Source: a virus
Lineage: Duplodnaviria; Caudoviricetes
Reading direction: 5' to 3' (one strand)
DNA: 64,000 bases
IMG/VR virus record: IMGVR_UViG_3300011423_000006
Coordinates: 1-64,000 of that record
Below the pieces are notes generated by a model that worked only from the letters and a program-made list of their open reading frames with translations, was not told the DNA's origin and searched no databases. The translations under genes and the position numbers were made by a program. Positions 26,444 to 59,813 of this stretch are shown here, piece after piece; position 1 is the stretch's first letter, and each line of letters begins with the position of its first letter.

Positions 26444-27781
26444 CTAAGTCAATGAATTTTCCGCGTCTTCCACGCTGATTTCTTCACTATCCAGTTGTTC
26501 TGATTCGGCTAATAAGAATTTCTGGCTCTTGAGTTTTAAGCCAACAAAACCACCAATACGCTTAGATAAAACAACGCCTTCATCTGGTAATCGGCCCTGA
26601 CAATAAATACAATCCTTTTCTAAATAGTTTTCAATTAATTTATTTAAAAAGTTTTCGTGCCAATCACTTCCAACAGCAACATCCAATTCAGGATATAAAT
26701 CCTTGGCGCGACCAATATAATATACCGGCACATGCTTCAATCCAAATTTATTACAATAATCCAAAACCTGTTGCAAAGAAAATTCATAAACTTGTCCATC
26801 GACGCTAGTATATGTAATTCTAAATACATAAAAATCACATTGATTTTCCGCACACCCATAATCATAAGCGCCCTTTTTGCACTTCTGTATAGCTCCACCC
26901 GTAGGGGTAAAACCCACAACTTCACCATAACAAGAAATACCGTTTTGCAAACATTCTTGATATTTTTTGCCAACCAATTCCCAAACGTTCGCATCATAAA
27001 AATCATTGGTTTTTTGATCTGCAAATTCATTTTTAATAACTCGCCTGCTAGAAACAACTAGGCCATATTCGCTTTCGATAATTTTAGCACCAAAAAACTT
27101 CGCGATTTTATCAGTCATTGATAATTTGCGTTTTACGCCCACTTTAGCAATAACCCCGTTTGCGCCATGCCACTTGCTGGTAATTTCAATCCAATCTTCA
27201 GGATGAATTGTATTAATCTCGCGCTTAAGATGGCGATAATCAGGGCTCAACCTGAATTGGTTGTCCACCAATCGGCTTTCCCGTTTAACCCGGCTTTTAG
27301 GGCCATTAGGAGCGCCCGCCACCTTTTGATTACCCGGAACATACTTCTCAACAAATAATAAATCACCAATAGAATCAAATTCTTTATTTAAATCTGCTTC
27401 TGTTACTTGGTATTTAATTTTTTGAGTCTTAAGCCAATCGTTGAACTCAAAAACAGGATGCAAATATCCTTCACTCAAAATAGAGCGCAAGCGTGTTGCC
27501 TTAACTCGGCACTTGACGCTAAAGAATCCCTTTTTGGTCTTATCTTGGTTTAATTCCGGGTCGGAATAACCATTAATATAAGATAGAAAATCTTTGTTTA
27601 TCTTACATTCAAGAGGAAAATAGATATAAAGGCCCCCAACAACAGCATCCTTGCCCGTTATAATTACTTGGCCCTCAACAGTAACTAAAGAAAGCCGGTC
27701 TGCGCTCGGATGAGCGCGTAATTCCGGCATTTTAACAATTTTACTTAAATAATTTAAATTTGTAGATTTTACCTGTAGCAT
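26444..27781 (-). CDS. RNA ligase, DRB0094/Rnl2-like with N-terminal OB domain
   Basis: HPSADRL, RVKATRLR...SEG, ITSKWHGAN (motif I), YGEVVG, FYVF, EGVV, LKLKS. Confidence 0.85.
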   Translation of the reverse strand: MLQVKSTNLNYLSKIVKMPELRAHPSADRLSLVTVEGQVIITGKDAVVGGLYIYFPLECKINKDFLSYINGYSDPELNQDKTKKGFFSVKCRVKATRLRSILSEGYLHPVFEFNDWLKTQKIKYQVTEADLNKEFDSIGDLLFVEKYVPGNQKVAGAPNGPKSRVKRESRLVDNQFRLSPDYRHLKREINTIHPEDWIEITSKWHGANGVIAKVGVKRKLSMTDKIAKFFGAKIIESEYGLVVSSRRVIKNEFADQKTNDFYDANVWELVGKKYQECLQNGISCYGEVVGFTPTGGAIQKCKKGAYDYGCAENQCDFYVFRITYTSVDGQVYEFSLQQVLDYCNKFGLKHVPVYYIGRAKDLYPELDVAVGSDWHENFLNKLIENYLEKDCIYCQGRLPDEGVVLSKRIGGFVGLKLKSQKFLLAESEQLDSEEISVEDAENSLT

Positions 27782-28828: not shown

Positions 28829-29683
28829 TTATACTATTCTATTTACACTATTTCTCGCAACCCATTCATATTCCGCTATTTCGGAAACTCTGTCAACTAT
28901 CTTTTTTTTGTCCGCCGCATACAACCCCGCCGAAGAAAACGAAGTCAACTCCAACAGCCAATAATCCCCATCGGCATCCTGACATATATCTACACAAAAA
29001 ACCGAGTCTGGAAAATATTTAACATTCAAAACTTCCTCGCATAACGCTATAGCCCCAAACGGGGCGCTAGGAATTAATGTTTTTTGACCCTGAAACATAT
29101 ACGTTGAAGAAGCTATAATTTCACCCCGATTATATTTTGAGCACACAAACCGCCATTCTCCCGTAACAATTTTAGGAGTTGATACAATAACTATGTCCTC
29201 GTCCTTGGCGCTACAAGCAACTGCATTATTCCAAAAACGATCAAAATCCTGTAAATCTAATAATTGCCCCGAGAATGGTTTGTCTCCTGAATCCGGCCTG
29301 ATAAAAATCAAGGCTTCTTTACCAAATTCGCAATAAATTTCAAATTTATTTTCTTGTAACTCTTTAACTCTAAAAAACTTACGCCTATCATTAAATAAAA
29401 ATTTATCTAAATCAGAATAATAAGCAGAACAATAATATTTCTCCCATGAATTATAAGCGATAGGAAAACAATTTTGGGGCAATCTATTTCTAATGTTTTT
29501 AGTCATTTGAATAGAACCTTGGACAATTACGCAATCCCCTTCATTATATCCACTAGGATCAAAATCGAAATGATTATGACGGCCAATAACAAAACATTCT
29601 CGTCCGCTATCGCGAACATTTTTAATTAAATCGCGATAATCCTCGGAATCTGTAAAATTCTCAATGATCCATTTACATTTCAT
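28829..29683 (-). CDS. ATP-grasp protein (R2K/DUF4343-like)
   Basis: FIRPDSGDKPFSG, EWRF, VDI, LLEL.SFSSAGLY. Confidence 0.8.
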   Translation of the reverse strand: MKCKWIIENFTDSEDYRDLIKNVRDSGRECFVIGRHNHFDFDPSGYNEGDCVIVQGSIQMTKNIRNRLPQNCFPIAYNSWEKYYCSAYYSDLDKFLFNDRRKFFRVKELQENKFEIYCEFGKEALIFIRPDSGDKPFSGQLLDLQDFDRFWNNAVACSAKDEDIVIVSTPKIVTGEWRFVCSKYNRGEIIASSTYMFQGQKTLIPSAPFGAIALCEEVLNVKYFPDSVFCVDICQDADGDYWLLELTSFSSAGLYAADKKKIVDRVSEIAEYEWVARNSVNRIV

Positions 29684-30192
29684 TTCAACAAACTCCTAAC
29701 CCTCATTAATATTTTCCCTAAATTATTTTCTCCCGCGTTAGTCTTAACATCATACCCCCAAATTTTATCGCCCCAATGATTTGTTTCCTCTAAATACCTA
29801 TCACCCGTTGCCAACAATTTTTCTTTTAAACCAGAGTTTTCATTAAATTTCTGTAAATTAAACCAAAACATAAAATCAAATTTTACTGTTTCCCAATCGT
29901 CTCGTAATTTTATGGTTCGACCTAACTTCTTGGCTTCGGCGGGTTTTAAATCAATAAATTTTTTCTGATCGTCTTCATCCAAAGACTTCGCCGCCATGAA
30001 AGCATTTTCTACATAATGAAACTCAAATCCATTATAACTAATCGGATAAAAACAAGGCCAAAAATTACTCAAAAACCGATAATCACCAAAAAATCCCTTG
30101 ATCCATTTATCATTATGTTCGGCGTAATTCTTCCAGTCGCCAAATTTATAAGGAGGATCGTTCCACATTATATCACTCATTTGTATTTCCAA
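29680..30192 (-). CDS. NADAR family protein
   Basis: FLSNFW, E..F.A.K, AKKLGR, KF, LL.TG...LEE...WGD..WG, G.N.LG..LM.VR. Confidence 0.9.
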   Translation of the reverse strand: MEIQMSDIMWNDPPYKFGDWKNYAEHNDKWIKGFFGDYRFLSNFWPCFYPISYNGFEFHYVENAFMAAKSLDEDDQKKFIDLKPAEAKKLGRTIKLRDDWETVKFDFMFWFNLQKFNENSGLKEKLLATGDRYLEETNHWGDKIWGYDVKTNAGENNLGKILMRVRSLLK

Positions 30193-32275: not shown

Positions 32276-32746
32276 TTAATCCTTCTTGCAAATTAAAACT
32301 TTAATATCATTATTAAAAACACTTCTGATCATTGTTTCGCAAATATTCCAATCTCCGCCCGCTAAATTACATCCCATTTTATAAGGAATTCCAACCGTCA
32401 TTTTCTCCTTACCAGAACGCATGATATAATCTTTAATATATTCTAAACCATTATAATATGCTTCATAATCAGTATATCGTCTGTCCCGCCCGTAATAATA
32501 CTGACCATACATATTATAAACAACTTTAATTCTGGTATCCGGTCTACGAATACAACAAAAACTGGCGGTACCTAATTTGTTTCTATCTCCTTTGATTGTT
32601 TTGCAATCAGCTTCATAAACTTCAGGAAACCGCGCCCGAATATCCTTGGCAATACCCGAGCCCATTGTATTCTGGCAATTTGCCTGATGGATCAAAATGT
32701 CAATCGGGGCCTCGAAAATATCTCCATTATAATATTCAACACTCAT
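32276..32746 (-). CDS. macro domain protein (ADP-ribose hydrolase)
   Basis: GDIF, HQANCQNTMGSGIA, NMYGQ, PYKMGCNLAGGDW; true start 32746 lies after a terminator. Confidence 0.88.
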   Translation of the reverse strand: MSVEYYNGDIFEAPIDILIHQANCQNTMGSGIAKDIRARFPEVYEADCKTIKGDRNKLGTASFCCIRRPDTRIKVVYNMYGQYYYGRDRRYTDYEAYYNGLEYIKDYIMRSGKEKMTVGIPYKMGCNLAGGDWNICETMIRSVFNNDIKVLICKKD

Positions 32747-32752
32747 AAATTT

Positions 32753-32788
32753 AAAAAGAGGACGGCTTACTAGCACGTAAGCCGCCCC
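32753..32788 (-). terminator. terminator closing the ncRNA transcript
   Basis: ggggcggcttac-gtgcta-gtaagccgtcct then ctttt. Confidence 0.8.
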
Positions 32789-33079
32789 GGTAATATATTT
32801 AATTATATTCGAATTGTGGCATTTTATACTATAAATTAAAAAATACAATTAGAAACTAAAATTAACCTCAAGGTCTTACTGTTAAACGACCCGTTCATTT
32901 AAATTTAATGGCGAACAGGAAGGGAATTGCACCCTCATCACAGAGCATAATTCTAATTATTTTTTAACTTTCACAACTCTAGTTTTAAGCCTTCGGGTAA
33001 TAACCTGAACTTGAATGAGTTAACTTAACCCTTAGCTTGAGCTTGGATCGTTAGGGCATCGCCCCAAACATACCCGAAA
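32755..33079 (-). ncRNA. structured RNA with circularly permuted tRNA-like domain and hexamer-repeat domain
   Basis: T-arm GAGGG/TGCAATT/CCCTT, acceptor CCTGTTC-G-CCA, 12-nt linker, GAACGGG, D-arm GTTT/AACAGTA/AGAC, long closing stem. Confidence 0.75.
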
Positions 33080-33823
33080 TTATTCCTTAAATACAAAATC
33101 CAATAACTTTTTACCAATTTGAGCGGTTGAGTCCACTACAACTTCATTGGCGCGAGAACGGGCCGAACGAATTGCCCGCACTAAAATATCAATACGAGAC
33201 AAAATATTGGCCTTCTCCAAAGGCGTAATCATTCCAGACCATTCTTGCTCGGTAATCTTACCTACCGGCACATCCTCAGAAACAATCTCCGTTTGGGCCG
33301 GATGTTCTTTAGTCGCCTCATACTTAACTAAAACTCTATTAGTTTTCTTGGTCCGAATCTTGTTAATATCGCGAGCAACATACACCCCCTGATTTGCGTC
33401 CATCGTAAACCCTTTAGTTGGGTCCAAAGTTGGAATATGATGGGCTAATTGCTGAACTTCATTTACCCTCTTTTCCAATTCAAGCAAAGAAGTAGCCGGA
33501 ACATCCTTCGCTAAAATATCTCCACCTTCCAAAATAATATCAGCTTTAGCAACAGTGTTTGCTTTAGCTACTTGAAAACCCGCGTCAATAGCTTTGGCAA
33601 TATGGTCCGAAATCCATTTTAATTCCTTGACAACAGTAGTTTGAATGTCTAATTGTTGTTCGATAACCGGCGCAATTTTTTCGTCAGTAGGAAAAAAGGT
33701 AGTAATCTTCTTTTCCATTAAATGGCGCTTTTTCTCGAAAGTGTTTTGTAACTCGGCGCGGCATTTATTTGCCTGAGTCTCCAAATTTCCTTCGACCGCT
33801 AATAGTTCATGTAGTTTTCCCAT
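33080..33823 (-). CDS. conserved hypothetical protein (DUF7873-like; family name from memory)
   Basis: KLHELLAVE, AN..AKADI, VPAT.LL.LEK, IPTLDP, RTKK...LV.YEATKEHPAQ...EDV.VG.....WSG, AR..AN. Confidence 0.7.
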   Translation of the reverse strand: MGKLHELLAVEGNLETQANKCRAELQNTFEKKRHLMEKKITTFFPTDEKIAPVIEQQLDIQTTVVKELKWISDHIAKAIDAGFQVAKANTVAKADIILEGGDILAKDVPATSLLELEKRVNEVQQLAHHIPTLDPTKGFTMDANQGVYVARDINKIRTKKTNRVLVKYEATKEHPAQTEIVSEDVPVGKITEQEWSGMITPLEKANILSRIDILVRAIRSARSRANEVVVDSTAQIGKKLLDFVFKE

Positions 33824-33831
33824 ATATTTTA

Positions 33832-33859
33832 ATATTAAACCGAATCTCAATTAAATCAA
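33832..33859 (-). promoter_or_regulatory. sigma70-like promoter for the protein plus ncRNA unit
   Basis: TTGATT-16-TAATAT, 8 nt to ATG. Confidence 0.55.
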
Positions 33860-33874
33860 GAGTTATTTTCGTCT

Positions 33875-34396
33875 TTATTTCTTAATCATCGCCTCAATCA
33901 ATGGCTTCAATTTAGGAATTAACTTTAATTGTATAGCCTGATCGAAAGGATAAAGTATCCAATCTGTATGCTTGTGCGGCTCGGTATTTCTAGGCACTTC
34001 TCCCGGTCTCAACCAAACTTTGTAAATATATTCAATTTTTGCCGTAGGCTCTTTGTCGCTTACTTCCGCTAATTCATAACGATTATCTTGAAAAATATCA
34101 AGCCCCGTTTCCTCTAAAAGTTCACGCTTTGCGCCCTCCAATGGATTTTTCAATTCATCGCCCTCTAATTTACCACCGGGAACGCAATAATAATCCTTAT
34201 ACGTGCGGCACGTTTCCAACCGCTTGGATAAAAATACCTTATTTAAATCTTTAATTGCTATAATACAAACCGTCGCCTCATAAAGCTTAACATTATCTTC
34301 GTTAACTACGGCGGGCTCTACTTTAAATGGATTGGCCGTTTTAAAATTTAACAAATCAATTAATTCTTGGGCCGCGCCCTCAAAAAATAATTTCAT
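33875..34396 (-). CDS. NUDIX hydrolase
   Basis: PGGKLE....AKRELLEETGL Nudix box; EPHKHTDW. Confidence 0.88.
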   Translation of the reverse strand: MKLFFEGAAQELIDLLNFKTANPFKVEPAVVNEDNVKLYEATVCIIAIKDLNKVFLSKRLETCRTYKDYYCVPGGKLEGDELKNPLEGAKRELLEETGLDIFQDNRYELAEVSDKEPTAKIEYIYKVWLRPGEVPRNTEPHKHTDWILYPFDQAIQLKLIPKLKPLIEAMIKK

Positions 34397-36760: not shown

Positions 36761-37350
36761 TAATATTTAAAACGAAAAATATTCTTATAAATCCAAACTG
36801 CTTTACTATGTCCCAAAAACCAAAAAAGTAAACACAAAACCCCTCGTTTGATTAAAAATATACCCTCTTGCTTATAATTTAAAGCTAACTGATTAGCCAG
36901 AACATGACACCGCCGCACAAATTGATTTTCAAGCCCCTTTCCCTTCTGAATATGATCTTTATATTTATGAAAAAGCAAAGCTATATTCGTGGACTTAGAA
37001 TAAGTTTTGTAACCAAATTCCCGTTCTTGCTCAGAATTACAATACCAATCGCAAATTGCCCCATTATCAGGAGTAGAAAATTTAAAAGTTTCAATATTTT
37101 TAGCTTGAAGTAGTCGAATAATTTCAGGGCGAATAAAATCAAATAATCCACCATCATCTATCCAAGTAATTTCTACATAAGGCTCAAAAAAATACCATTT
37201 TTCCTCTACCGCATATTTCTTTAAAATACCAAAAACATCTTGAATCAACTCAATATATTGCGTGCAACTCTTAAAATTATCATGATAATCAATCCCCTCA
37301 CCCCCAAAAGTAACTCTATAATTATTGATTCTCATAAAAGACATTTCCAA
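36760..37350 (-). CDS. hypothetical protein
   Basis: Co-oriented ORF. Confidence 0.55.
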   Translation of the reverse strand: MEMSFMRINNYRVTFGGEGIDYHDNFKSCTQYIELIQDVFGILKKYAVEEKWYFFEPYVEITWIDDGGLFDFIRPEIIRLLQAKNIETFKFSTPDNGAICDWYCNSEQEREFGYKTYSKSTNIALLFHKYKDHIQKGKGLENQFVRRCHVLANQLALNYKQEGIFLIKRGVLCLLFWFLGHSKAVWIYKNIFRFKY

Positions 37351-37784
37351 ACTTTTTTCGCCACCGGATTAATCCAAATAAATCCTCGCTTCTTTTCAAC
37401 TAATTGTTGCAAAACATTATGCGTGCCGCCTTTATTCCCGTCCCAAACAATAATAGCCATATCCGCCCGCTCGACCATCCAACTATTTTTAACATCTTTA
37501 TGTTCAGCCGCCGCCTCAATCATTTGCTGCCGATTCCACTTATCAGCGTCCAACATGTATTCATCTTGCCCCTCGAAAGGCACGCACGCAATATAAGGAA
37601 TATCTAAAAAATTACAAGCTTCGCAAAACCATAAATCTACCCCATCGGCCATCCCTGAATAACACAATAATTGACCAACAGAATCATTAATATTTTTTAA
37701 AGCAATTTCGATTTGCTCTTTAATCCAACGATAATCGTAATTCTCTAATTTAGACCGGCGATGCCCCGAAATCATTAATCTCAT
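37332..37784 (-). CDS. SLOG family protein (YspA/DUF1273-like)
   Basis: ISGHR, SGMADGVD, PFEGQ, N.WMV..AD....WDG..GGT. Confidence 0.85.
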   Translation of the reverse strand: MRLMISGHRRSKLENYDYRWIKEQIEIALKNINDSVGQLLCYSGMADGVDLWFCEACNFLDIPYIACVPFEGQDEYMLDADKWNRQQMIEAAAEHKDVKNSWMVERADMAIIVWDGNKGGTHNVLQQLVEKKRGFIWINPVAKKVWKCLL

Positions 37785-40698: not shown

Positions 40699-41829
40699 TT
40701 ATCCTACCGAAACTTCTCCCTTAATCGCTGGATGGCTCTCATAACCGTCAATTCGAATATCTTCAAATCTAAAATCAAAAATATTATTCACCTTGGGATT
40801 TAACCAAAGCTTCGGGAGTTGCATCGGCTCGCGAGTTAATTGTTCTTTTACTTGATCTAAATGATTCTGATAAATATGCAAATCGCCATAGGTATGAACA
40901 AATTCGCCCGGAATCATCCCTACCGCATGGGCAACCATGCTTGTGAGTAGACCGTAACTAGCGATATTAAATGGCACGCCTAAAAAAGTATCGCATGATC
41001 TTTGATATAACAAGCAATTAAGACGCCGTTTAGGAATACCAAGCTTATCACATTCTATTTCCCAAATTTCTGAATCAACTCCATTTAAAAGACCAATCTT
41101 AATATATTCATGTTTATTAGCCGCGATAATAATTCTTTCTTCTGCGGTTAATTCCTCCGTATTAAAATGAAATAAACAATGACACGGCGGCAAGGCGCAA
41201 TGATCTACCCAATAGGGATGCCACGCACTAACAATCATGCGACGATCATCTGGATTGGTTTTAAGCTTGTCGATAACTTTTTGAAGTTGGTCAACAGTTT
41301 TGACAAATTCAATCTTACCCCGTTGAATATTGTCTCCTATATAATTATTATCAATAATAGGGTTTGGGTTTCCATAAGGAAACGCCCTCCACATTTGACC
41401 ATAAGTGCCTTGTCCTAAGTTACCATGTTCTTTTACAAAATCTTGGTCGCTAGAAAGAGTTTTAAGGTAATGGATGAATTTATCTTTTGATAATGGCACT
41501 CCACTAATATCAGTCCAATCATCACGAACCAATCCCTGTTTAACTTTTTCGGTATATCGCCTATAGCAATCCCCATTCCAAATATTACACCCGTTATCGA
41601 CCAAATATTTAATATTAGTGTCGCCCTTAATAAACCACAATAATTCATGAATAATAGCTTTAACTGCCATTTTCTTGGTTGTTAATAAAGGAAAGCCCTC
41701 CTGCAAATTAAATCGCGCTTGTGCCCCGAATACTCCTATAGTATTCATCCCGGTCCTATTTTTCTTGACGCGCCCCTTTTCTAAAATAAGACGCAACAAT
41801 CTTTGATATTCTAGGTCTGTGTTATTCAT
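40699..41829 (-). CDS. thyA: thymidylate synthase
   Basis: FPLLTTKK, ELLWF, YGQMWR, RRMIVSAW, ALPPCH, YQRSCD.FLGVPFNIASY, GDLHIY.NH. Confidence 0.95.
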   Translation of the reverse strand: MNNTDLEYQRLLRLILEKGRVKKNRTGMNTIGVFGAQARFNLQEGFPLLTTKKMAVKAIIHELLWFIKGDTNIKYLVDNGCNIWNGDCYRRYTEKVKQGLVRDDWTDISGVPLSKDKFIHYLKTLSSDQDFVKEHGNLGQGTYGQMWRAFPYGNPNPIIDNNYIGDNIQRGKIEFVKTVDQLQKVIDKLKTNPDDRRMIVSAWHPYWVDHCALPPCHCLFHFNTEELTAEERIIIAANKHEYIKIGLLNGVDSEIWEIECDKLGIPKRRLNCLLYQRSCDTFLGVPFNIASYGLLTSMVAHAVGMIPGEFVHTYGDLHIYQNHLDQVKEQLTREPMQLPKLWLNPKVNNIFDFRFEDIRIDGYESHPAIKGEVSVG

Positions 41830-42128
41830 TTTACTTCGACCCTATTATATAAATGCTTTAAACGTTCACTATAATCTACTTCGGGCGGCGTAGTCGCTTT
41901 AGCATAAACCGCAAGCGCGTTTTTAATAACTTTTAGTAGCATTTCCTTTTCAATTATATCATCTAATTGGTCTTCAAATCCGTCTTTTACCTTCGCCGCC
42001 GCGCTTAATGTAAAAAAAGAAACATTTGGAAAAAAATCTTGATAATCTTTTTTCGCACATTCAAATCCATATCCCGTAGAAGTTCCTACGATAATTGCCA
42101 TATCGACACTAACATATTTTTCTTTCAT
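41826..42128 (-). CDS. hypothetical protein
   Basis: Co-oriented ORF. Confidence 0.5.
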   Translation of the reverse strand: MKEKYVSVDMAIIVGTSTGYGFECAKKDYQDFFPNVSFFTLSAAAKVKDGFEDQLDDIIEKEMLLKVIKNALAVYAKATTPPEVDYSERLKHLYNRVEVK

Positions 42129-42132
42129 AATT

Positions 42133-42372
42133 TTAAGGCTCTACCCTCACAAAAATTTTATCTCCATTATAAAGCGTTCGCTTCATATAAACGTATTTAT
42201 TTGTCGGCACTCCATCTTTGCTCCATAATTCAATATCTATTACGCCGCTGGCATCTTTTGATTCGCGGCGGATTAAACGATAAACACCCGTTTCATCTTT
42301 AACTACTTTTTTCGATGCAGAACAACTAAAACCCAAAAACAACCAACAAGTAAAAAATATAAAAAATCTCAT
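42133..42372 (-). CDS. small lipoprotein
   Basis: LGFSC lipobox. Confidence 0.5.
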   Translation of the reverse strand: MRFFIFFTCWLFLGFSCSASKKVVKDETGVYRLIRRESKDASGVIDIELWSKDGVPTNKYVYMKRTLYNGDKIFVRVEP

Positions 42373-42580
42373 TCTATTTTATATCCAAGTTGATATAACC
42401 CCGCCAAAATTACTTCATCCTTTAAATCCGCGCTAAATCCAAAAAAATCCCAAACCCAATCTTCGGCTTCCGCGTTAATCTTGTATTTTTTCTGGAATTT
42501 CTCATAAACCTTGTTGCGTTTTTTTTCTAATTGTTGAAATTCCTTGACGGCTTTTTTCAAAGCTTTTTTCGAAATAATTT

Positions 42581-43105
42581 TCATACTTCAATTAGCTTCC
42601 CATTCATTAAAGTTTTAATGCCCAAAGCTTTTTCTATTGGGCGCACATTTACTTCGGCCTCGGCAAACATACTTAGTGAACGCTGTAAGCTTTCCGTCCA
42701 TCTACCCAAATATTCTTCGTGTTGTTTTGCTTGCCAGTCTGAATGAAAAGCTATTTCTTTAACCCCGGATTGAATAATAGCGCGAGCACAATCCGAACAA
42801 GCAATACCGTTTGTAAATAAATATGCGTCTTTAGTTGAAATTCCTTCTTTTGCACAAGAATAAATAGCGTTACGTTCAGCGTGTTCGTAATAATTATATT
42901 TTTCTGGTCTTTCGTTCCTAGCAGACGGCCAATAATTTACTCCCTGTGGCAAGCCATTATAACCCGACGAAATAATACGATTGTTTTTAACAATGACCGC
43001 GCCAATTTTAGTAGATTTATCTCGCGACTTTGACCCAATCAAATATACATGCCTAAGAAACAATTCGTCCCAAGACATTGTATTATCATCATAATTTAGC
43101 TCCAT
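42581..43105 (-). CDS. dCMP deaminase
   Basis: S.D..TKIGAVIV, GYNG, HAERNAI, CSDCARAIIQSG. Confidence 0.9.
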   Translation of the reverse strand: MELNYDDNTMSWDELFLRHVYLIGSKSRDKSTKIGAVIVKNNRIISSGYNGLPQGVNYWPSARNERPEKYNYYEHAERNAIYSCAKEGISTKDAYLFTNGIACSDCARAIIQSGVKEIAFHSDWQAKQHEEYLGRWTESLQRSLSMFAEAEVNVRPIEKALGIKTLMNGKLIEV

Positions 43106-43106
43106 A

Positions 43107-43313
43107 TTAATTTAACCACCTAATTAAAAATGTTACCGGCATGGTAATTGGCCAAAATAAACAATTTGCAACAAAAACCAAAGCCATCATCCACCATTTC
43201 ATAGCGCCGGTAATTGTTGCGTAAATAAAAGAACTAAACCCCCAAACCGCACCAATTACCAAATAAACTCCTAGTAATAAATAAATCATAAAATTATTTC
43301 TTTGAACTGCCAA
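43107..43313 (-). CDS. small two-TM membrane protein
   Basis: Two hydrophobic helices, LFWP. Confidence 0.5.
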   Translation of the reverse strand: MAVQRNNFMIYLLLGVYLVIGAVWGFSSFIYATITGAMKWWMMALVFVANCLFWPITMPVTFLIRWLN

Positions 43314-43824
43314 AACCCCCGTCCGCTCGCTTTGTCTCCCCTAACTCGTTAACAAATTCAAACTCCAAACTAACATTGTCCCGGCCCTTCATTTGAGCAA
43401 TCGCATCTCCATTTTTATAAATTTTTTCAATATTAATCCATCCCATAATTCCTTGAAACGGAACAACACGTAAATCTTCTGGTTGCCAGATATAACGGAA
43501 ACGACACAAAATCTCTCCTGTATAACCCGTATCAATCGTTCCCACACTATTACAAAGTAATAAATTATATTTAGAAAGCGAGGACCGAGGGAAAATCTCA
43601 ATATGCTTTTCTGCTTCAGGGGTCCAAAACAAATTAGTTCTATATTCAATAAAATCTACTCGTCTCCAAAGCCCTTTTGCTTCCCCGTTTTTTATTAATT
43701 TTCCTTCTTCATTTACTCCTGTTACCAACGGGTCTAAAACAGTAAAAATATCATACCCCGCATCATCATCATGCGCCCGCTCGGGAATTCTGATTCCATC
43801 AATATTCTTTAATAATAATTTCAT
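43294..43824 (-). CDS. dut: dUTPase
   Basis: AGYD, PRSS, NSVGTIDTGYTGE, IAQ, RADGGFGSS. Confidence 0.92.
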   Translation of the reverse strand: MKLLLKNIDGIRIPERAHDDDAGYDIFTVLDPLVTGVNEEGKLIKNGEAKGLWRRVDFIEYRTNLFWTPEAEKHIEIFPRSSLSKYNLLLCNSVGTIDTGYTGEILCRFRYIWQPEDLRVVPFQGIMGWINIEKIYKNGDAIAQMKGRDNVSLEFEFVNELGETKRADGGFGSSKK

Positions 43825-59121: not shown

Positions 59122-59813
59122 CTCTTTGTTTTTCCGCGCATTTAAGACAATACGAACGTTATTTTCCTAATATTAAGGAAAAATTTCTTCAGCTTTCAAC
59201 GGGCGGGCAGATTGATGTTTTTATTCATACGTGGCGTAAAAGAGGCCCAACTCATTCTTGGCATGTAAGTCATAACGGAACCGAGGGAATGGATTTAATG
59301 GATATAGATATAGAGCATGTCAAACAATTATATAATCCGACTATAATAGCTGTAGAAAATTACGAAGATATCAAACCCATTCTTTTATTGAAAAATTTTA
59401 CTGACAAAACCCCCGGCAACGAGCATATTTATAAAGAAGGGATTTGCACCACTACCCCCGCATTTTATAAAATTTGGCGATGTAATGAACTAAAAAAGGA
59501 ATACGAGCAAACTCACAATTTTGTTTACGATATGGTGATTCGTTTGCGCCCCGATATGAATTATTCATATCGAACAATGACTTTAGACATACGTAATCAT
59601 GTACATGTTCCTCATATCATGGAAGACCAATGTTATGATCATTTAGCTATTTCTAATTCAAAATTCATGGATCAATATTCCTCTTGCTTTTTGAATTTAC
59701 ATAAAATTTACCAGCAAGATTTTGATTTGGGCGGCGAGAAAACATTATATCGTCATTTACAATTACAAGGTTTGTCTTTTACGTCTATTCCTCATTGTTC
59801 AATCACTAAATAA
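59112..59813 (+). CDS. putative glycosyltransferase
   Basis: IALCFS..LR, DVFIHTW, YD.VIR.RPD. Confidence 0.65.
   Translation: MRIALCFSAHLRQYERYFPNIKEKFLQLSTGGQIDVFIHTWRKRGPTHSWHVSHNGTEGMDLMDIDIEHVKQLYNPTIIAVENYEDIKPILLLKNFTDKTPGNEHIYKEGICTTTPAFYKIWRCNELKKEYEQTHNFVYDMVIRLRPDMNYSYRTMTLDIRNHVHVPHIMEDQCYDHLAISNSKFMDQYSSCFLNLHKIYQQDFDLGGEKTLYRHLQLQGLSFTSIPHCSITK

Follow-up and report, generated by a model that had tools for sequence, protein, structure and literature searches.

The 64,000-nucleotide (nt) stretch of viral DNA analysed here (positions 1 to 64,000 of IMG/VR record IMGVR_UViG_3300011423_000006; hereafter the window) carries a gene of the DUF7873 family, followed by a non-coding RNA (ncRNA) region that contains a circularly permuted tRNA-like module. 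The full virus record spans 124 kb, with a completeness of 64%. All features of the locus lie on the minus strand, in the order NUDIX hydrolase gene (33875-34396), 247-amino acid open reading frame (ORF; 33080-33823, with its TAA stop codon at 33082-33080), 333 nt without a credible ORF, a terminator and a Macro-domain gene, which begins at 32746, beyond the terminator. The 247-residue product matches PF25283 (DUF7873) over its full length (E 5.1e-68), and the only ORF in the gap is a TTG-start extension of the next gene. The gap holds a structured ncRNA region of about 330 nt (32750-33079), whose 3' end is formed by a terminator hairpin and T run (32750-32788), with a 12-bp stem (32788-32759) that includes seven G-C pairs and is closed by the hexaloop GTGCTA. 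The Pfam match and this hairpin bear out the layout given in the initial annotation, namely a gene followed by about 330 nt of non-coding DNA and a strong terminator. The promoter that had been placed at 33832-33859 fared less well, as this promoter-like site (TTGATT, 16 nt, TAATAT), read from the sequence, matches eight of 12 consensus positions and falls below the threshold of the promoter scan. Since its -10 element ends 8 nt ahead of the ATG and there is no Shine-Dalgarno sequence, the DUF7873 mRNA may be leaderless.

The permuted module begins 144 nt past the DUF7873 stop codon, on the same strand. In 5' to 3' order, it consists of a T-arm (GAGGG, loop TGCAATT, CCCTT; 32936-32920) that is evident in the sequence, in the minimum free energy (MFE) fold and in the covariance model match described below; an acceptor 3' strand, CCTGTTC, with the discriminator G and an encoded CCA (32919-32909); a 12-nt A/T linker ending in U at position -1 (32908-32897), which is likely to be an RNase P leader; an acceptor 5' strand, GAACGGG (32896-32890), which forms seven pairs with 32913-32919, one of them G-U, and has A-U at 3:70; and, after the dinucleotide TC, a D-arm (GTTT, loop AACAGTA, AGAC; 32887-32873). 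The T-loop has G instead of U at position 55, and the D-loop is without a GG dinucleotide. Each of these arms, together with the CCA and the 12-nt linker, was found in the sequence exactly where it had initially been annotated.

In place of an anticodon arm there is a long, interrupted A/U-rich helix. Its 5' strand (32951-32979) is seen in the duplex fold, and its 3' strand (32811-32854), which contains 2-nt and 14-nt bulges, in both the MFE and the duplex folds. Duplex folding recovers both of the segments claimed for this helix at the outset (32951-32970 with 32833-32854, and 32972-32979 with 32811-32818), and its proximal 10 bp, formed by ATAATTAGAA (32960-32951) and TTCTAATTGT (32854-32845), have a counterpart in the window's clade. 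The tRNA-like arms are joined to the long helix by a short anticodon-stem-like helix with its 5' strand at 32867-32871 and its 3' strand at 32941-32945, three of whose four possible pairs form in the window; the 5' strand is followed by GGTTA, the window version of a conserved GAUYA-RGCU internal-loop motif. No 7-nt anticodon loop is possible in the module, as the 4-bp stem enters an internal loop and then the long helix. The unconstrained MFE fold of the gap (-85.6 kcal/mol, z = -2.97) likewise places the T-arm, an acceptor helix of 7-8 bp and the D-arm atop the long A/U-rich helix.

Upstream of the module lies a 5' domain (32988-33079) composed of a closing stem, in which TTTCGGGT (33079-33072) pairs with ACCCGAA (32998-32992), a hairpin (33065-33053) and a track of hexamers of the type YAAGYT/CAGGTT (33045-33022, 33013-33002 and 32993-32988). 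The hexamers read, in order, CAAGCT, CAAGCT, AAGGGT and TAAGTT, then CAAGTT and CAGGTT, and then AAGGCT. Their density of 10 motif matches per 80 nt is the maximum for both strands of the whole window, against a background of 1.2. Relatives share this layout, with repeats of the CAGGCT/CAGACT type, and the closing stem is 87.7% paired in 22 of them, its sequence being mostly conserved with little covariation when counted by hand. RNAalifold returned no consensus for an alignment of the 5' domain, because the boundaries of the domain had been guessed.

The DUF7873 gene and the RNA recur as a pair. DUF7873 was found by tblastn in 75 phage records, including phages of Vibrio, Rhizobium, Gordonia, Klebsiella/Serratia, Arthrobacter and Ralstonia as well as cyanophages. 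In the three phage records inspected, 450-485 nt of unannotated DNA lie 3' of the gene, and two of the three loci fall within tRNA clusters. The corresponding gaps of relatives in phage records and IMG/VR contain a permuted unit of near-canonical tRNA sequence, which runs from a T-arm with a GTTCRAAT loop through an acceptor 3' strand of 7 nt, in most cases followed by NCCA, and then through an A/T-rich linker, the 5' strand complementary to the first one and TA to a D-arm of the form GCTC-AGYGGTA-GAGC. The initial annotation had proposed a conserved protein with a downstream ncRNA carrying a permuted tRNA-like domain, and a search of the homologues' downstream regions bears this out. A strict pattern scan located such a unit on the same strand, 75-660 nt past the stop codon, at 82 loci out of 87 (including a small number of duplicate contigs), compared with about eight matches on the opposite strand and about seven upstream across all loci. 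We then aligned 77 permuted units from other loci, with the window left out (alignment A2), and derived from them a covariance model of four helices, R1. By this model, all viral loci but one (80 of 81) have the unit 3' of the gene, the odd one out being a sequence that ends 98 nt past the stop codon, and the unit adjoins the DUF7873 gene in 58 of the 76 bacterial loci that are not cut short. The bacterial carriers include Bacteroidota, Planctomycetota, Myxococcota, Actinomycetota and others.

The spacing between the two elements varies. At L004 (3263-3460; = L012), a small ORF rich in Cys-X2-Cys pairs stands between DUF7873 and the RNA, and at several other loci 370-575 nt separate the gene from the module. 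Some Bacteroidota loci without an adjacent module have short tandem repeats directly past the DUF7873 stop codon (GTTACGA in five copies, or TACGAA-like; L112 2241-2310, L136 2244-2280), and a repeat track may be a more constant companion of the gene than the module is.

In the window, R1 gives a match at 32863-32950 that covers the full model (positions 1-89) with 44.9 bits, and this is the only significant match in the 64 kb of the window and the 124 kb of the record. A second, weak match at 59408-59467 (6.6 bits) runs antisense inside an ORF and was dismissed as chance. With an E-value of 3.6e-11 from a model trained without the window, the permuted tRNA-like module at this locus is more than a product of chance. 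As in its clade (L004-L042), there is a single module in the window; L002, L003, L060-L062 and L079 have two, so that module number is a variable feature of the family and no bar to membership. The flanking helix of the window has 10 contiguous bp at the family position, its register being off by 1 nt on each side. The closest relatives are P0002 (77% identity) and P0003 (70% identity); a blastn search with the window RNA against phage records gave no match, and a metagenome scan yielded nothing above about 60% identity. On balance, we believe that the RNA of the window is a single-module representative, divergent in sequence, of a large, undescribed ncRNA family that travels with the DUF7873 gene.

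Evidence that the module is a structured RNA comes from features on which its members had not been selected. The pattern scan required pairing in the T, acceptor and D helices, and the near-100% pairing of these helices in A2 follows from that selection. It did not require the 4-bp helix that joins the nucleotides before the variable loop with those after the D-arm, and this helix is 85% paired across the 77 units and 95% paired across the 29 clade members, compared with 33-47% in slid controls, with many double changes at all four of its pairs. Past it lies the conserved internal loop, with CAAA on one side and GAUYARGCU on the other, and then the flanking helix, which has 5-11 contiguous pairs in 25 of the 29 clade members and a different sequence in each; for the proximal part at least, this bears out the long helix of the initial annotation. 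The two acceptor strands pair with one another and co-vary. The elbow formed by the T-loop and the D-loop co-varies too, in a tertiary (18:55) co-change: U55 accompanies a GG in the D-loop in all 72 units that have it, and G55 accompanies a D-loop without GG in all five (72/0/0/5; Fisher p 5e-8, a statistic that ignores relatedness). The window, with its G55 loop TGCAATT and its GG-less D-loop AACAGTA, fits this co-change, so its off-consensus loops follow the family's own rule. Finally, the terminator hairpins of many clade members carry a GNGNWA hexaloop, of which GTGCTA is the window version; as this loop is conserved, the terminator hairpin may be a functional part of the ncRNA. Terminators with such a loop were seen in the window (32765-32782) and at L007, L008, L009, L013, L022, L023, L025, L026, L028, L029, L037, L038 and L040.

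We also screened a 61-genome sample of one bacterial order, the one that includes Bernardetia, for DUF7873, for TROVE (the Ro60 domain) and for R1 matches, using ARAGORN to remove the junctions of tandem tRNA genes. All ten genomes with DUF7873 have the module, which adjoins the gene in six and is unlinked in four; in four genomes without DUF7873 it adjoins a TROVE gene; and of the 42 genomes with neither protein, two have it. The association is significant by Fisher's test (p 4e-9 for 10/10 versus 2/42) and stays so when the DUF7873 group is limited to the five genomes that lack TROVE (p 1.4e-5). Gene and RNA thus share genomes even where they lie apart, and the counts imply that the module accompanies either Ro60 or DUF7873. 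In five genomes without a module adjoining DUF7873, strong modules are present elsewhere in the genome. The two genomes with neither protein carry a compact module with a very short closing loop (G020:C2:281802-281876, 50.5 bits; G046:C1:962987-963066, 48.7 bits), and may have a third partner or incomplete assemblies. In a complete Bernardetia chromosome without a TROVE gene, three tandem repeats of about 527 nt, each made up of a module and a different tRNA gene, lie 135 kb from the sole DUF7873 gene (L175 250-1920, minus strand, = G001:C1:2738393-2740063). An ORF beside these modules was considered as a DUF7873 paralogue and ruled out.

The wider neighbourhood of the locus includes, on the minus strand, an RNA ligase (PF09414, with a PHA02142-type OB fold; 26444-27781), an R2K-clade ATP-grasp protein (28829-29683), a NADAR protein (29680-30192) and, as the product of the Macro-domain gene, a DarG-like protein (32276-32746) that is closest to the macro domain of the antitoxin DarG (NCBIfam E 2e-10, PADLOC DarG E 3e-11). 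A YpsA SLOG protein is encoded at 37332-37784. Macro, NADAR and NUDIX genes within 5 kb of one another look like a phage set for reversing ADP-ribosylation. Further along, a nucleotide-metabolism cluster (40699-43824, minus strand) encodes thymidylate synthase, dCMP deaminase and dUTPase, and this thymidylate synthase, at 376 amino acids against a 266-position profile, has about 100 extra residues. The RNA-repair and ADP-ribose genes among which the initial annotation had set the locus are therefore real in the window, but they are no constant feature of such loci: in 160 others, no neighbour known from the window reappears within 1.5 kb of the DUF7873 gene, and the recurrent neighbour is a standard tRNA gene. 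The DUF7873-RNA cassette moves on its own. At L019, L022, L025, L029, L032, L035 and L037, a standard tRNA (RF00005, 50-64 bits, with varying anticodons) lies about 50-120 nt past the module and before a shared terminator, an arrangement that would probably put the tRNA mimic and the real tRNA on one transcript in these loci.

Turning to the protein, DUF7873 has more than 2085 homologues, and among the libraries searched Pfam alone gives it a name, no family for it being present in PHROGs, NCBIfam or PADLOC. An AlphaFold 2 model (predicted local distance difference test, pLDDT, 90.4) shows a helical bundle, with four long helices, and long beta hairpins, one of which has about 20 residues per strand. 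With this model, Foldseek found no match at E <= 0.001 in the PDB or BFVD; a VIA fold search gave no convincing match, the best (Z 9.4) being to designed helical bundles; a profile search against PDB sequences returned nothing below E 0.35; and the ESM Atlas held DUF7873 itself and a weak DUF6847 look-alike only. There is no SPFH chain among the Foldseek and VIA matches, though a missing match does not exclude the fold. Longer or fused forms of DUF7873 were also looked for and none was found, which is weak evidence. When two copies were modelled together, the prediction scored 0.72, compared with 0.00 for the best control; runs shared at least 96% of contacts and the partner had a pLDDT of at least 88. 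The mark set for this score is reached by 20 of 30 proteins solved as one-chain pairs and by one of 23 solved as single chains, counts that hold only roughly here because our own alignment was used in the two-copy run. The modelling supports DUF7873 being a symmetric homodimer.

What might such a protein and RNA do together? N73-CCA and U at -1 are hallmarks of bacterial RNase P substrates. Across the family, 59 of 77 units (77%) have NCCA next to the acceptor 3' strand, and 46 of 77 (60%) have U at -1. There is a precedent in the YrlA RNA of M. smegmatis, which alone among Y RNAs has an acceptor stem of 7 bp; it is cut by RNase P both in vitro and in vivo, and its 5' half ends in CCA (PMC4201824). 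From the encoded NCCA, the U(-1) and this precedent, cleavage is expected in the window between 32897 and 32896, followed by trimming to 32909. The ncRNA would be made with the DUF7873 mRNA, or just after it; RNase P would cut ahead of G+1 of the acceptor stem, and trimming would expose the encoded CCA. The two strands would stay joined through three helices, those of the acceptor stem, of the short stem and of the long A/U-rich segment, and we give an even chance to such a two-piece RNA with a CCA end. The predicted DUF7873 homodimer would then sit on the body of this RNA, perhaps on the hexamer track, taking the part that Ro60 has for Y RNAs. This Ro60-like role is a tentative assignment, which we rate slightly below the cleavage itself. 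The tRNA-like head could recruit or soak up a factor that reads the acceptor, T-arm and CCA end of tRNAs; this might be an enzyme for processing or repair, or else a host toxin acting on tRNA 3' ends. The initial annotation had also suggested a decoy for anticodon nucleases, a role that finds no support here: it is unlikely because the module, in which the 4-bp stem leads into the internal loop and the long helix, is without an anticodon loop. Factors that read the acceptor, T-arm and CCA end are the better candidates. Taken as a whole, the proposal is that Y-RNA-like tRNA mimics have in DUF7873 a second protein scaffold, independent of Ro60, whose homodimer would occupy the hexamer track of the RNA in its two-piece form with a CCA end, and that the resulting phage particle would capture or redirect an acceptor-end factor (for example a host defence toxin that modifies tRNA 3' ends, or a tRNA repair or processing enzyme). 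This proposal is a possible though rather doubtful one.

Several observations count against an RNA family that works together with DUF7873. About a quarter of bacterial DUF7873 genes are without an adjacent module, and the proteins they encode keep all of the residues that are conserved in module-linked ones. The isoelectric point of DUF7873 is neutral (7.0; family median 6.9), and the structure searches with its model turned up no recognisable RNA-binding fold. The co-occurrence sample covers one order, with incomplete assemblies and related genomes, and includes the two genomes that have a module and neither protein. A CCA is missing from 18 of the 77 units, many of which close the acceptor stem with a hairpin; RNase P cleavage therefore cannot be universal in the family, and the tendency of the CCA-less units towards a hairpin-closed stem means that an uncut form must also function in some lineages. 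As for the window itself, its T- and D-loops are off-consensus, and its 44.9 bits lie within the range that R1 gives to junctions between tandem tRNA genes (20-60 bits, above all for identical ones). Such junctions match R1 because each copy supplies a 3' acceptor strand to which the 5' strand of the following copy is complementary, so that any survey of the DUF7873-linked RNA must filter them out; tandem copies of one tRNA gene score 46-60 bits in G041, G009, G020 and others. This artefact cannot explain the window match, because ARAGORN found no tRNA in the window and there is no tRNA gene in the whole record.

How do other explanations compare? The module might be a cis-acting processing or stability element, serving as RNase P punctuation or as a protective 3' end for the DUF7873 mRNA and neighbouring tRNA transcripts, without forming a particle or acting in trans. 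The RNA begins 3 nt past the stop codon, too close for a separate promoter to fit in between; 42 of 88 viral loci have a standard tRNA gene no more than 1.5 kb away, in many cases inside the same terminator-bounded unit; and the NCCA and U(-1) are features of RNase P substrates; yet a cis element leaves the hexamer track, the internal-loop motif, the long helix and the conserved terminator loop unexplained, and would not account for the four genomes in which the module lies 20-150 kb from the DUF7873 gene and still co-occurs with it. We consider it unlikely. A further alternative is a working, circularly permuted decoding tRNA gene, or else what is left of tandem tRNA genes after decay. In algae and archaea, permuted tRNA genes show the same arm order, and R1 also gives 46-60 bits to junctions of tandem identical tRNAs. 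The absence of a 7-nt anticodon loop, the way in which the 4-bp stem runs on through a conserved internal loop to the long helix, the pairing and covariation of the acceptor strands with each other, the lack of any tRNA gene in the window or record and the fixed position after DUF7873 together make this explanation extremely improbable.

Two other candidates are themselves permuted RNAs. The window RNA might be a true Ro60-type YrlA whose Ro60 gene lies in the host or in that third of the phage genome which the record lacks: the module order is identical, R1 scores genuine YrlA RNAs beside TROVE genes at 55-64 bits, full-length alignments of the YrlA model (RF02553) to relatives reach 29-39 bits (its gathering score being 69), the record is 64% complete and YrlA RNAs are known from phages (PMC4201824). 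Set against this, the YrlA model has no match in the window or the record up to E 10, the Ro60-binding motif GNCGAAN0-1G is absent from the 333-nt window RNA and present in one of 29 clade sequences, there inside the D-arm, and TROVE (PF05731) has no match in the 124-kb record, which extends to the whole record the initial remark that no Ro gene is present. Since, in addition, five module-bearing DUF7873 genomes lack TROVE and the RNA tracks DUF7873 in nearly all viral loci, we regard a true YrlA as quite improbable. The remaining alternative is a two-piece permuted transfer-messenger RNA (tmRNA), or another aminoacylated RNA that enters the ribosome, to which the permuted order, the encoded CCA, the 7-bp acceptor stem and a weak tmRNA-model match (18.8 bits) in one relative could point. 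ARAGORN, which detects permuted tmRNAs, and Rfam find none. The alanine determinant G3-U70 is missing, as had been annotated (A3-U70 in the window, with G-U in two of 77 family units), the D-arm differs from the tmRNA one in being a full stem, and the discriminator varies between units (T 27, C 26, A 13, G 11), so that there is no single amino-acid identity. A tmRNA-like RNA is accordingly hardly credible at this locus. The family of DUF7873-linked RNAs thus remains the explanation that we prefer.

This RNA appears to be new to the databases and literature that we consulted, as the initial annotation had supposed. Rfam 15 contains no family for the DUF7873-linked RNA; at gathering scores Rfam finds nothing in the window, including YrlA, tmRNA and tRNA, and in E-value mode it returns terminator-driven noise only; ARAGORN reports neither a tRNA nor a tmRNA there; and in the literature searched we found no description of the gene-RNA pair. 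The point matters because Y RNAs and their tRNA-like modules have so far been tied to one protein, Ro60. Here the same kind of module is attached to a different and widespread protein, DUF7873, and a second, independent system would allow the purpose of the tRNA mimicry to be tested by comparison. As several cultured phages carry the gene-RNA pair, among them Klebsiella phage vB_KpM_FBKp24, Ralstonia phage RSL1 and Rhizobium phage RHph_TM30, experiments should be straightforward and, if the CCA-ended two-piece form proves true, it would be a new natural substrate class for RNase P.

The closing comparison is with systems already described. Two-piece tmRNA (permuted ssrA) resembles the window RNA in having the T-arm and the CCA-ended acceptor strand upstream of the 5' acceptor strand, and probably in maturing through tRNA-processing enzymes. 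It differs in its alanine identity pair, its pseudoknot series and its detection by ARAGORN and Rfam, all of which are absent from the window RNA, which in turn has a complete D-arm and a 4-bp stem; nor was a tag reading frame seen in the window RNA, although no separate search for one was made. The nearest published idea is that of a Band-7/SPFH protein with a b7a-tRNA (Burroughs and Aravind 2016, as described in 10.1101/312249), a system which, according to that description, was predicted by comparative genomics and never validated. As there described, it shares with the DUF7873 pair a Ro60-independent protein scaffold and a tRNA-like ncRNA. Compared by description, the b7a-tRNA is said to be close to an authentic tRNA and to lie beside RtcB, whereas the window module is permuted and without an anticodon, and the window's record has no match to RtcB (PF01139) or Band-7 (PF01145).

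The closest system of all is formed by the YrlA Y RNAs and Ro60/Rsr (RF02553; Chen et al. 2014, PMC4201824; Wang et al. 2018, bioRxiv 10.1101/312249), above all by the M. smegmatis type. The YrlA-type topology recognised in the initial annotation holds, with the same permuted order of stem, T-arm, loop-closed acceptor-like stem, D-arm and stem, and both RNAs have tRNA-like T and D loops and are encoded beside their presumed protein partner. They differ in that the partner gene in the window is DUF7873, which has no detectable relation to TROVE, and in that the window RNA, with neither the Ro60-binding motif nor a match to the YrlA model, is two to three times longer, has a hexamer-repeat domain and its own terminator hairpin, and encodes its CCA rather than having it added. 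Since R1 recognises true YrlA RNAs, YrlA and the DUF7873-linked RNA contain the same kind of module, and the DUF7873-linked RNA is probably an undescribed relative of the RNA-protein particles of the Ro60/Y-RNA type.

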